DNA from: Candidatus Daviesbacteria bacterium
GTDB lineage: Bacteria > Patescibacteriota > Microgenomatia > Daviesbacterales > UBA10151
Length of the DNA stretch: 64,000 nt
Direction: 5' to 3'
Assembly: GCA_016186955.1 (NCBI GenBank)
Contig: JACPKP010000003.1
Coordinates: forward strand, 194,290-258,289
Shown: positions 53,360 to 55,075 of the stretch, in pieces
Position numbering within the stretch: position 1 is the stretch's first letter
How the letters are laid out: every line of letters begins with the position of its first letter
Program-made: the position numbers and the translations under genes
The notes under the pieces: generated by a model
The model's database searches: none
Seen by the model: the letters and a program-made list of their open reading frames with translations, nothing else
Told to the model about the DNA's origin: nothing

Positions 53360-54140
53360 TAGCTTCCCACCCTCCAGGTGGGTTAGCTTGACACCTACTC
53401 TTTTTTAAAGTATGATCCTATCCCAATGGCTACCAATAGAAAAATAGTATTTGCGAATGAAGGAATTTATCATGTGTTTAATAGAGGTTTGGATAGAAGA
53501 CCTACATTTACTAATAAATGGGAATTTGATAGGGCCAAGAAACTGGTAAAATTTTATAGGCATAAAGATATCCCAATCAGATTTTCTAAATTAATTCAAC
53601 AACCTGAAGATATCAGGAACAAAATCTTGGAAGATTTATATAAGAGCGATAGGTTAGTTGATATCCTGAGTTTTTGTTTAATGCCAAACCATTTTCATTT
53701 TCTTTTAAAACAGAATGTTGACAAAGGCATAGCAACTTTTGTTGCTAATTTTACAAACGCATATACGAAGTATTTTAATACTAGAAATACAAGAATCGGC
53801 CCGTTATTTCAGGGAATATTTAAAGCAGTCTTAGTAGAAAATGACGAACAATTAGTTCATGTATCCCGCTATATTCACTTAAATCCAGTAGTTTCAAGTA
53901 TCATAGAAACAGATGAATTAAAAAATTATCCATGGTCTTCCTATCCGGAGTATCTTTCTCAATCTGATGATGAAATAGCAGGGAAAGCATTGGTTTTAAA
54001 TATGTTTAAATCTCCAAAAGAATACCAAAAGTTTGTTTTAGACCAGATAGATTATGGAAAGAAGTTGGAAGCAATAAAACATCTAATTATGGAATAAAAA
54101 GAGAGGGTGGGAAGCTAATACACCTTCCAGGTGTACTAGG
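53360..54140 (+). mobile_element. IS200/RAYT-like unit: Y1 (HUH) transposase flanked by inverted REP-like hairpins
   Basis: tagcttcccaccctccaggtggg (53360-53389) upstream and its inverse agagggtgggaagcta...caccttccaggtgta (54098-54140) downstream of tnpA-like gene. Confidence 0.6.
53426..54097 (+). CDS. IS200-like / REP-associated tyrosine transposase (Y1 HUH transposase)
   Basis: HUH motif PNHFHFLL, catalytic Tyr region SRYIHLNPV, N-terminal GIYHVFNRG. Confidence 0.75.
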   Translation: MATNRKIVFANEGIYHVFNRGLDRRPTFTNKWEFDRAKKLVKFYRHKDIPIRFSKLIQQPEDIRNKILEDLYKSDRLVDILSFCLMPNHFHFLLKQNVDKGIATFVANFTNAYTKYFNTRNTRIGPLFQGIFKAVLVENDEQLVHVSRYIHLNPVVSSIIETDELKNYPWSSYPEYLSQSDDEIAGKALVLNMFKSPKEYQKFVLDQIDYGKKLEAIKHLIME

Positions 54141-54150
54141 CGCAAAAATT

Positions 54151-54606
54151 ATGGAATTTGAAGATCATGATAATTTGCAAAATTTAGTCAGATATAAATT
54201 TGATAAACTCCCTGAGCAAGGATTTGATCTGTCTATGCTGCATAATATTGATACCTATAACCTTGTTCGTAATGAAAACAGGATACCTTTTTATCAAAGG
54301 TTAAGATCGCTTTTACCTGAAAATTTTTCGGTATATTACCCAGGGAGTGGAGCGGATCCTGTTCCAGCAATAGTATTTGAATCCCGGATTATTTATGGGT
54401 CTTTGCAGGAATCAGATTATTTCGGATTCTTAAGGGGTACAGCAGTTTGCACCGGGCTTTGTTACTCAGAAGTTATCAAAAAATATGGACCATTTGGTAA
54501 CCTAAAAATGATTTATGCTGACTTATTTAACCCTCCTTTCAAAGACAAACAATTTGATTTGGTGATAGTTGATTCACCCCTACAAATGTTAGAAAAAAAG
54601 GGTTAA
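54151..54606 (+). CDS. hypothetical protein (between REP copies)
   Basis: 151 aa ORF. Confidence 0.35.
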   Translation: MEFEDHDNLQNLVRYKFDKLPEQGFDLSMLHNIDTYNLVRNENRIPFYQRLRSLLPENFSVYYPGSGADPVPAIVFESRIIYGSLQESDYFGFLRGTAVCTGLCYSEVIKKYGPFGNLKMIYADLFNPPFKDKQFDLVIVDSPLQMLEKKG

Positions 54607-54626
54607 TTGAGGAACAGTATAGAATT

Positions 54627-54965
54627 TTGAAAAATAGTGGATTGCTGGTTATTGATAGAATACAAATTGAAGTGGACAGTAAAGGCAATCTTATTGATTG
54701 CAGTTATGACCCGATTGAAAAAAGATTAATTAAGTTTGGTTTTGAGTTGAACAGTATTATTATTTCTGATCCTCTTAGCCTGACATATCTCATTGGGGAT
54801 CCTCCAGATGGTATAAATGAAGGTAAGCAATATGCTACAAGCAGTTTGGGTGGATGGCTGGTTAATAAAAGCGAATTTGCCGATGCTAACCTCAAAAGTA
54901 AAATATGCAGAATATTTGCAGTTGAATCTATGCTATTTAAAAAATCCAACTGTCCCCAATATTAA
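54627..54965 (+). CDS. hypothetical protein (between REP copies)
   Basis: 112 aa ORF. Confidence 0.35.
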   Translation: MKNSGLLVIDRIQIEVDSKGNLIDCSYDPIEKRLIKFGFELNSIIISDPLSLTYLIGDPPDGINEGKQYATSSLGGWLVNKSEFADANLKSKICRIFAVESMLFKKSNCPQY

Positions 54966-54980
54966 AAGATCAATTATCAA

Positions 54981-55075
54981 AAAAGAGAGGGTGGGAAGCC
55001 CATGAACCACTAGGGATTCAGGGCCATGCACTCTTCGTAGTGCATGGCTAATACACTTGGAGGGTGTACCACGTC
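54981..55075. repeat. third REP-like copy (agagggtgggaagc + hairpins ccatgcact-cttcgt-agtgcatgg, tacact..gtgta)
   Basis: 19-nt identity aaaagagagggtgggaagc with 54098 copy. Confidence 0.7.

Follow-up and report, generated by a model that had tools for sequence, protein, structure and literature searches.

A RAYT-like HUH/Y1 gene between hairpin-bearing terminal inverted repeats, a probable TIRtron-type unit in a Candidatus Daviesbacteria genome

We examined a gene for a HUH/Y1 enzyme of the RAYT kind (REP-associated tyrosine transposase, where REP stands for repetitive extragenic palindrome) and the repeats that surround it in a 64,000-nucleotide stretch of a Candidatus Daviesbacteria genome (assembly GCA_016186955.1, contig JACPKP010000003.1, positions 194,290 to 258,289 of the forward strand), hereafter the window. 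Repeat copy counts for the source genome refer to this 64-kb window, which is part of a 322.9-kb contig. An earlier note on the same DNA had described an IS200/RAYT-type transposase flanked by REP-like hairpins, with a third repeat copy enclosing cargo genes. The core of the locus consists of four features, given here in window coordinates.

53360..53405, plus strand: left terminal inverted repeat (covariance model; fold; covariation; boundary of homology with the related locus L117)
53388..53416, plus strand: sigma-70-like promoter of the Y1 gene (TTGACA, 17 nt, TATGAT), inside the left repeat
53426..54097, plus strand: RAYT-like Y1 HUH enzyme gene (223 aa; catalytic residues H89, H91 and Y149)
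54096..54135, minus strand: right terminal inverted repeat R1, which begins at the Y1 stop codon (covariance model; right-end alignment A5; L117 boundary)

The HUH/Y1 gene was found where the earlier note had placed it. Its product carries the HUH motif H89-F90-H91 (53690-53698) within PNHFHF and the catalytic Tyr149 in RYIHLNP (53870), and scores 36.5 bits against Pfam Y1_Tnp, over the cutoff of 23 bits. A database entry for the identical protein reads 'transposase [Candidatus Daviesbacteria bacterium]', and more than 6000 clustered homologues, almost all of them 223-225 aa long, come from Daviesbacteria, Levybacteria and other Patescibacteria. Among 21 aligned relatives, NHFH (residues 88-91), YIHLNP (149-154) and the tail residues W170-S171-S172-Y173 are invariant, and each of the four motifs NHFH, LFQG (in GPLFQG), YIHLNP and WSSY is invariant or nearly so. 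No second Y1 gene was present within the window. Of the double label IS200/RAYT, the RAYT-like half stood and the IS200 half did not: the sole NCBIfam match of the protein was REP_Tyr_transpos (47.1 bits, E 2e-12, residues 73-171 only; equivalog cutoff of this model, NF047646, 80 bits), whereas no IS200-family NCBIfam model matched and the tyrosine motif is of the Y---NP type.

The AlphaFold model of the protein (pLDDT 84), in which the C-terminal residues 162-221 are helical, led to the same side. A Foldseek comparison with the PDB returned as its best match 4ER8, the E. coli TnpA-REP with a REP hairpin (E 2e-6, TM 0.73), and the IS608, ISDra2 and IS200 structures reached only ~1e-3. Because sequence and profile searches of solved structures had missed 4ER8 and gave only a marginal ISDra2 match (E 0.6 with the single sequence, 0.017 with a profile), the structure comparison was needed; the similarity to E. 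coli TnpA-REP lies below phmmer/hmmsearch detection. IS200-type proteins (subclass 1.1, with IS608 and ISDra2) share the Y1 HUH fold but have Y---Q (Y[IV]ENQ), DH[VI]H and a core-only length of ~150 aa, as opposed to the NHFH, YIHLNP and 223 aa found here. By these sequence characters the protein fits TnpAY1 class 2 (RAYT-like; Y---NP) and not a conventional IS200 enzyme.

The two repeats follow one plan, in which an outer G+C-rich hairpin (CACC-loop-GGTG) is joined by a TAGCTTGA-type linker to an inner CACCT half-site, ~45 nt at each end. On the left, the outer foot TAGCTT (53360-65), whose TAG is the stop codon of an upstream open reading frame (ORF; 53159-53362), is followed by the hairpin CCCACC-CTCCA-GGTGGG (53366-82), the linker TTAGCTTGA (53383-91), the inner half-site CACCTACTC (53392-400) and then a T-run; the DNA fold of this repeat is -10.1 kcal/mol (z -3.7). 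R1 is composed of the inner AAAAAGAGAGGGTGGG, the linker AAGCTAA and the hairpin TACACCT-TCC-AGGTGTA (54119-35). A covariance model of the module, trained on the upstream flanks of relatives and run over the window with filters off, matched the left flank with 44 bits (E 9e-10) and R1, on the opposite strand, with 27.5 bits (E 3e-5), and gave no other full-length match in the window. The earlier note was thus right that hairpin-bearing repeats bracket the gene in inverted orientation.

At the level of single letters, GGGTGGGAAGC occurs exactly three times in the 64 kb, each time beside the Y1 gene (53362-72, minus strand; 54105-15 and 54989-99, plus strand). The third of these, 884 bp further downstream, belongs to a third repeat copy, R2, which is described below. 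The 11-mer count is by itself not significant, at least three matches at up to one mismatch having been obtained in 12 of 100 shuffles. The two ends also form a perfect 15-nt inverted repeat (53360-74 / 54103-17) and a 30-nt inverted repeat of 80% identity (53376-405 / 54096-125). This perfect match, on which the earlier note had relied, is real, but the pairing that it implies is offset from the register conserved in the family, where the partner of the left hairpin 53366-82 is the right hairpin 54119-35 and that of the inner CACCTACTC is GAGAGGGTG; the offset is due to the presence of two linker-plus-CACCC units in the left end.

The anatomy of the repeats emerged from relatives, for which ~85 loci encoding Y1 proteins at 36-83% identity were fetched. 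Most of about 70-85 such loci carry hairpins both upstream and downstream of the Y1 gene, of the type xCACC-loop-GGTGx, at -56 to -63 from the ATG and no more than 35 nt past the stop codon. The alignment of left ends (A3, 31 relatives) and that of right ends taken on the opposite strand (A5, 23 relatives) share one consensus, namely hairpin, (W)TAG(S)TTG(R) and CACCT, and we therefore regard the flanks as true ~45-nt terminal inverted repeats (TIRs). In support of the hairpin, 80.6% of its positions are paired across the 31 relatives and 7 of the 8 pairs have changed on both sides, with a covariation score that was reached by none of 500 shuffles and to which slid-partner controls came nowhere near. 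The linker is nearly invariantly TTGACA (TTGAC) in the left ends and the same positions vary in the right ends, which argues for a promoter superimposed on the left repeat; the promoter predicted in the window agrees with the consensus at 11 of 12 positions and is the best site in 53000-55200. In the distant relatives L078, L060 and L068 the hairpin follows directly after TTGA, which suggests that, in the clade of the window, a second hairpin has been reduced to the inner CACCT half-site.

Such hairpins might instead be ordinary gene-boundary signals (terminators, mRNA stabilisers or promoter parts) that are not substrates of the enzyme and whose symmetry is incidental. The near-consensus promoter in the left repeat, the position of the hairpins at gene ends and the placement of R2 directly after a methyltransferase-like gene all agree with this. 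However, none of the three hairpins has a following T-run or a terminator call, the left hairpin precedes the very promoter that it would have to serve, the two ends have the same module of three parts, the inner CACCT among them, in dozens of genomes, and the module is tied specifically to the Y1 gene family. We hold this explanation to be very improbable.

A second question was whether the repeats are REPs, as the earlier note had proposed. Classical REP families have ~1 copy per 4-10 kb. All three copies of the module in the window lie within 1.7 kb, none being found outside 53360-55069, and the GT[AG]G foot of canonical REPs is absent from every hairpin of the window; read on either strand, the bases on their 5' side are AGCTT or GCTAA at the left and GCTAA or CCTAG at R1. 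Strays are also rare in the flanks of relatives. Across 82 relative loci (748 kb) nearly all module matches adjoin the Y1 gene and ~8 are distal (L032, L015, L045, L014, L066, L061 and L069, together with L035, ~320 nt upstream of its gene), or ~1 per 90 kb, and near-exact hairpin searches of ~620 kb of relatives' flanks gave 4 distal copies. A AAGAGAGGGTGGGAAGC scan of a genome collection that does not contain the source genome returned 29 single matches in unrelated genomes and none in Daviesbacteria. On this sequence evidence the repeats appear to be low in copy number and close to the gene, and do not amount to a demonstrated REP system, so that the REP status given to them in the earlier note is not upheld.

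A genuine REP/RAYT system (REPtron) would nevertheless predict hairpins that are scattered over the remainder of the genome and mobilised in trans, with the window happening to be copy-poor. The RAYT-like protein, the inverted hairpin repeats at its gene, R2 in the next intergenic region, the solo copies away from the gene in L032, L015, L045, L014, L066, L061 and L069, and the REPIN-like palindromic doublets or small arrays by the gene (for instance, in L008, L028, L035 and L054) are in its favour. Against it stand the emptiness of the 64 kb outside 53360-55069, the low distal density in relatives, the missing GT[AG]G foot, a protein signature of subclass 2.1, a group that has yielded no REPs (PMC6006769), and the different sequence of the only dispersed palindromic family in the window. 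The E. coli RayT/TnpA-REP REPtron (4ER8; subclass 2.2 or group 2) is similar in being the closest solved structure, in its HUH and Y---NP chemistry and in having a single-copy gene, probably vertically retained, bracketed by inverted hairpin repeats, but differs from our locus, which has no GTAG foot, no high-copy dispersed repeats in the sequence examined and a protein ~60 aa longer. Likewise, the inverted hairpin doublets beside the gene in L008, L028 and L054 resemble REPINs (Bertels & Rainey 2011), but the repeats of the window lack a dispersed doublet population. We consider the REPtron explanation unlikely.

The genomic setting of the Y1 gene was compared with that of its closest relative with context, P0003 (81% identity, locus L117), which has an aminoacyl-tRNA synthetase gene on one side and trigger factor on the other. 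Two blocks, RRF-M50 and Tig-YqeY-YbeY-DnaX, are syntenic and in the same order in window positions 48044-63768 and L117, with the following identities to L117.

RRF: 71%
M50 protease: 56%
Y1 gene, in the variable interval: 81%
Tig: 71%
YqeY: 66%
YbeY: 66%
DnaX: 52%

The Y1 gene thus tops the set (81% vs 52-71% for its housekeeping neighbours), a retention comparison made on the single genome pair of the window and L117. In both genomes it lies in the variable M50-Tig interval, which is ~2.1 kb long in L117 and ~10 kb in the window. There it is taken up by genes of accessory type; present besides Y1 are an alpha/beta hydrolase, a DUF433/DUF5615 pair, a Nudix gene, a methyltransferase pseudogene, a patatin-like lipase, prolyl-tRNA synthetase (ProRS), an S41 peptidase and a PaaX-like gene. 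Between the two genomes the repeats are ~87% identical and the 4-fold degenerate sites of the Y1 gene 56%, and the homology stops exactly at the outer hairpins on both sides. Because the gene occupies the same interval in L117 and is conserved above its housekeeping neighbours, the comparison suggests that it has been retained and possibly domesticated. An exact look-up of the Y1 protein returned only a 2.2-kb Logan contig (L001) with a sequence identical to the window. Nine contigs carrying the identical P0021 protein were examined; they stem from several sequencing runs and one NCBI assembly, with the same neighbours in all four places shown. No locus was found that has the window's immediate neighbours but lacks the unit.

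These data bear on a further explanation, that the 776-bp unit is an autonomous IS200-like insertion sequence (IS) which transposes whole via its hairpin ends and arrived here by a recent single insertion. Like IS200, IS608 and ISDra2 it is a compact single-gene unit of ~0.7-0.8 kb with end hairpins and defined limits, at which the L117 homology stops sharply; relatives at ~70% identity are found in unrelated contexts, a 66-nt direct target duplication surrounds the unit in L060, and two divergent paralogues share one contig (L057, L082). On the other hand, the protein has Y---NP rather than Y---Q and no IS200 NCBIfam match, and no tnpB-like ORF adjoins the gene. IS200/IS605 elements have unlike ends on the same strand, multiple near-identical copies and often tnpB, whereas the ends here are inverted copies of one module and the unit is single in the window. 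Further, the gene occupies that same interval of the chromosome in L117, where the orthologues of housekeeping genes are 52-71% identical, the identical P0021 protein has the same neighbours at all places shown, and no relative was found on IMG/VR contigs, a result for which viral carriage was also rejected. Given this balance, we regard a recent IS200-like insertion as quite unlikely.

Two cases among the relatives deserve description. In L060 (~700-1620) the hairpin-Y1-hairpin unit is surrounded by a 66-nt direct duplication that takes in the upstream gene's 3' end and has the appearance of either a target duplication of unusual length or a scar left by recombination. L057 and L082 are divergent Y1 paralogues (43% and 46% identity to the query), each with its own flanking module, ~30 kb apart at ~540 kb and ~570 kb of contig Ga0209515_10000006 (594 kb).

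A better fit is offered by published TIR-flanked RAYT-like genes. Subclass 2.1 of the TnpAY1 proteins, which is the same as Bertels group 1, is characterised by NHVH or NH[YF]H, W[EQ] or FQ, and YIELNP or Y[IV]HLNP, by a tail with a conserved SS, by a median length of 238 aa and by the lack of any REP found, and has been equated with the TIR-flanked TIRYT genes of Di Nocera 2013 (Quentin 2018, PMC6006769). It is the largest RAYT group in both surveys (PMC6006769, PMC5581495), and the counts of flanking 16-mers are low in this group, at ~12 (Bertels 2017, PMC5581495). The corresponding units, TIRtrons, are RAYT-like genes with long TIRs at fixed distances, some of which are partly self-complementary, and with dispersed families in a few genomes only (PMC3733652). 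Our locus shares with them a RAYT-like Y1 protein of ~220-240 aa with NH[YF]H, FQ, Y[IV]HLNP and conserved serines in the tail, long terminal inverted repeats at fixed distances, few or no dispersed copies and a low gene copy number. The published GGGGWSAS, which holds for a subset of TIRYTs only, is matched no more than loosely, at 6 of 8 positions, by GGTGTCAA (the reverse of TTGACACC) and by GGGTGGGA. The locus differs in belonging to the Candidate Phyla Radiation (CPR)/Patescibacteria (Daviesbacteria, Levybacteria), which are unmentioned in PMC3733652, PMC6006769 and PMC5581495, and in having a family-wide module (hairpin, TAGCTTGA, CACCT) with a promoter built in; our literature search found no paper linking these RAYT-like genes to CPR.

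Because the gene is flanked by TIRs, its repeats have few or no dispersed copies and its protein bears the subclass 2.1 signature, we favour TIRYT/TIRtron over REPtron as the class, and think it likely that window positions 53360-54135 (~776 bp) form a TIRtron-type unit, made up of a RAYT-like HUH/Y1 gene and its cognate ~45-bp terminal inverted repeats. The unit behaves like a locus that has been kept and probably domesticated, and has the look neither of an insertion sequence in active spread nor of the master gene of a high-copy REP family.

Several observations weigh against this conclusion. The REP_Tyr_transpos score of 47.1 bits falls below the 80 bits of NF047646 membership, and at E <=0.01 the protein had no Pfam match beyond Y1_Tnp and hence none for the HTH-like (helix-turn-helix) distal domain of subclass 2.1, which is of the Bac_DnaA_C, HTH_23 or HTH_28 type; the protein fits subclass 2.1, Bertels group 1 and TIRYT by motif signatures, and the literature on subclass 2.1/group 1 gave no biochemical or other experimental data and no function. 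The flanks are direct rather than inverted in a few relatives (L055, L024, L049), and palindromic doublets stand beside the gene in L008, L015, L028 and L054. The finding of no extra copies in 62 kb bounds their density only at less than ~1 per 20 kb, which tens of copies genome-wide would also fit. Finally, relatives at ~70% identity occur in unrelated genomic contexts, and the unit has therefore relocated over long timescales.

Downstream of R1 lie three further features that had been taken for a third REP copy with two cargo ORFs.

54151..54965, plus strand: SAM-methyltransferase-like gene (SAM, S-adenosylmethionine), frameshifted (ORFs 54151-54606 and 54627-54965)
54980..55069, minus strand: R2, a solo right-end repeat in the orientation of R1 (54980-54999 and 55049-55069, with an insertion between)
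55000..55048, plus strand: 49-nt insertion in R2, with a 10-bp-stem hairpin GCCATGCACT / AGTGCATGGC

The third copy itself is well supported. A direct repeat identical at 20 of 20 positions connects R1 (54096-54115) with R2 (54980-54999), and once the insertion is removed R2 agrees with R1 over 28 consecutive bases and in the hairpin stem. Its hairpin is TACAC-TTGGAGG-GTGTA (55052-68), with the loop in the orientation (CTCCA, reverse strand) seen in the left end and in the right end of L117. The insertion folds with -13.6 kcal/mol (z -4.9) and has no other copy in the window at up to 3 mismatches; the end of the Logan contig L001 falls within the insertion (window position 55046).

The 'two small unknown ORFs' of the earlier note are one methyltransferase gene broken by a -1 frameshift in a run of seven adenines (A7, 54593-54599). 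When A7 is read as A8, the match of the fused 271-aa product to Pfam Methyltransf_11 (residues 114-168, 27.9 bits, cutoff 21.2) runs across the junction. Further, an intact 250-aa homologue, P0122, spans the junction (residues 42-169, 40% identity); this distant homologue was the sole intact one found in a search of 5.8 billion protein clusters. The same A7 run is present in L001. Third copies of the module ~1 kb from the Y1 gene, oriented as the adjacent end, were also seen in L045 (1879-3014), where they enclose an Era GTPase gene, and in L015 (1386-2478), where they enclose an unknown ORF and a predicted HTH-type regulator. As these are ordinary genes, the third copy would mark the next intergenic region and not a mobile cassette. 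Judging from these sequences, the methyltransferase pseudogene between R1 and R2 is best described as a neighbour gene, and its status as cargo is unsupported. A composite transposon that reaches from the left repeat to R2 was rejected on three points: in L117 the right end adjoins the stop codon just as R1 does, what is enclosed is a pseudogene for which one intact but distant homologue was found, and the third copies of relatives enclose ordinary genes.

By analogy with E. coli TnpA-REP and with IS608/ISDra2, the enzyme of this probable TIRtron-type unit would bind the hairpins in single-stranded DNA, for instance, in the lagging-strand template, and would nick and rejoin the strand beside them via a 5'-phosphotyrosine at Y149, with H89 and H91 holding the metal. 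Since the left repeat and the -35 box overlap, enzyme bound to this repeat might also regulate the transcription of the Y1 gene itself. The left hairpin precedes the promoter and is outside the transcript, which makes a role at the DNA level likelier than one at the mRNA level. R2 and the solo copies ~1 kb away in L015 and L045 could stem from a single repeat being copied, on rare occasions, to an intergenic region close by.

A bolder version, which we rate as a long shot, is that the Y1 gene and its private repeats are an ancient, vertically kept locus of Microgenomates for the processing of single-stranded DNA, constrained above housekeeping genes, which acts in cis on its own neighbourhood and seeds copies that bracket adjacent genes. 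If this were true, R1-methyltransferase-R2 in the window, Era in L045 and the two ORFs in L015 would be such seeded brackets, the interval between RRF-M50 and Tig would be a hotspot of gene gain and loss, and the role of the enzyme would be one in recombination or gene capture rather than transposition.

TIR-flanked RAYT-like genes are a known kind, to which this locus adds a CPR member with a well-defined hairpin-bearing repeat module. A large clade of group 1/subclass 2.1 genes, with its more than 6000 clustered proteins, lives in tiny CPR genomes, and ~45-nt oligonucleotides together with the 223-aa protein would make a clean, small enzyme-substrate pair for biochemistry. The conservation of the gene above its housekeeping neighbours bears on the idea of a 'domesticated transposase'. 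For annotation, the locus is a warning that local symmetry alone is not enough to name flanks REPs or adjacent ORFs cargo.

The window holds a second palindromic family, in which two hairpins, ATCCCGGA/TCCGGGAT and ATTCCCGC/GCGGGAAT, stand between inverted ends TGTCAT...ATGACA. It is the only dispersed palindromic family in the window, where it has five copies, all on the plus strand, one of which is the second hairpin only.

4120-4187, plus strand: dual-hairpin family copy
31381-31444, plus strand: dual-hairpin family copy
51014-51079, plus strand: dual-hairpin family copy
59802-59839, plus strand: dual-hairpin family copy
61677-61741, plus strand: dual-hairpin family copy

Hairpin 1 of this family shows compensatory changes. 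The earlier note had kept this family apart from the GGGTGGGAAGC repeats, and we agree that the two are unrelated. A link between it and the Y1 gene was considered and rejected, since there is no sequence similarity, no Y1 gene adjoins any of the window copies and no copy was found in 118 other loci. Directly after one copy, at 51165-51732, are the DUF433 and DUF5615 ORFs, which overlap and may be a toxin-antitoxin pair.

Three smaller signals were also noted in the window. An isolated hairpin, TTCCACCCCCGGGGTGGGA at 4895-4924, resembles the hairpin of the Y1-flanking repeats alone (16 bits, E 0.03) without linker or inner half-site and is probably due to chance. The stretch 53040-53125 contains GGTTCAAATCC, which raised the idea of a tRNA or integration site; this was dropped, as ARAGORN and Rfam found nothing there. 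Finally, positions 56186-56361 (plus strand) gave a sub-threshold match to the T-box leader (27 bits vs a gathering threshold of 93; E 4e-4 in a 541-nt search), which precedes a 60-aa ORF and the ProRS gene and is accompanied by a terminator-like hairpin at 56347-56399, and this element is, by its sequence and position, probably a divergent proline T-box.

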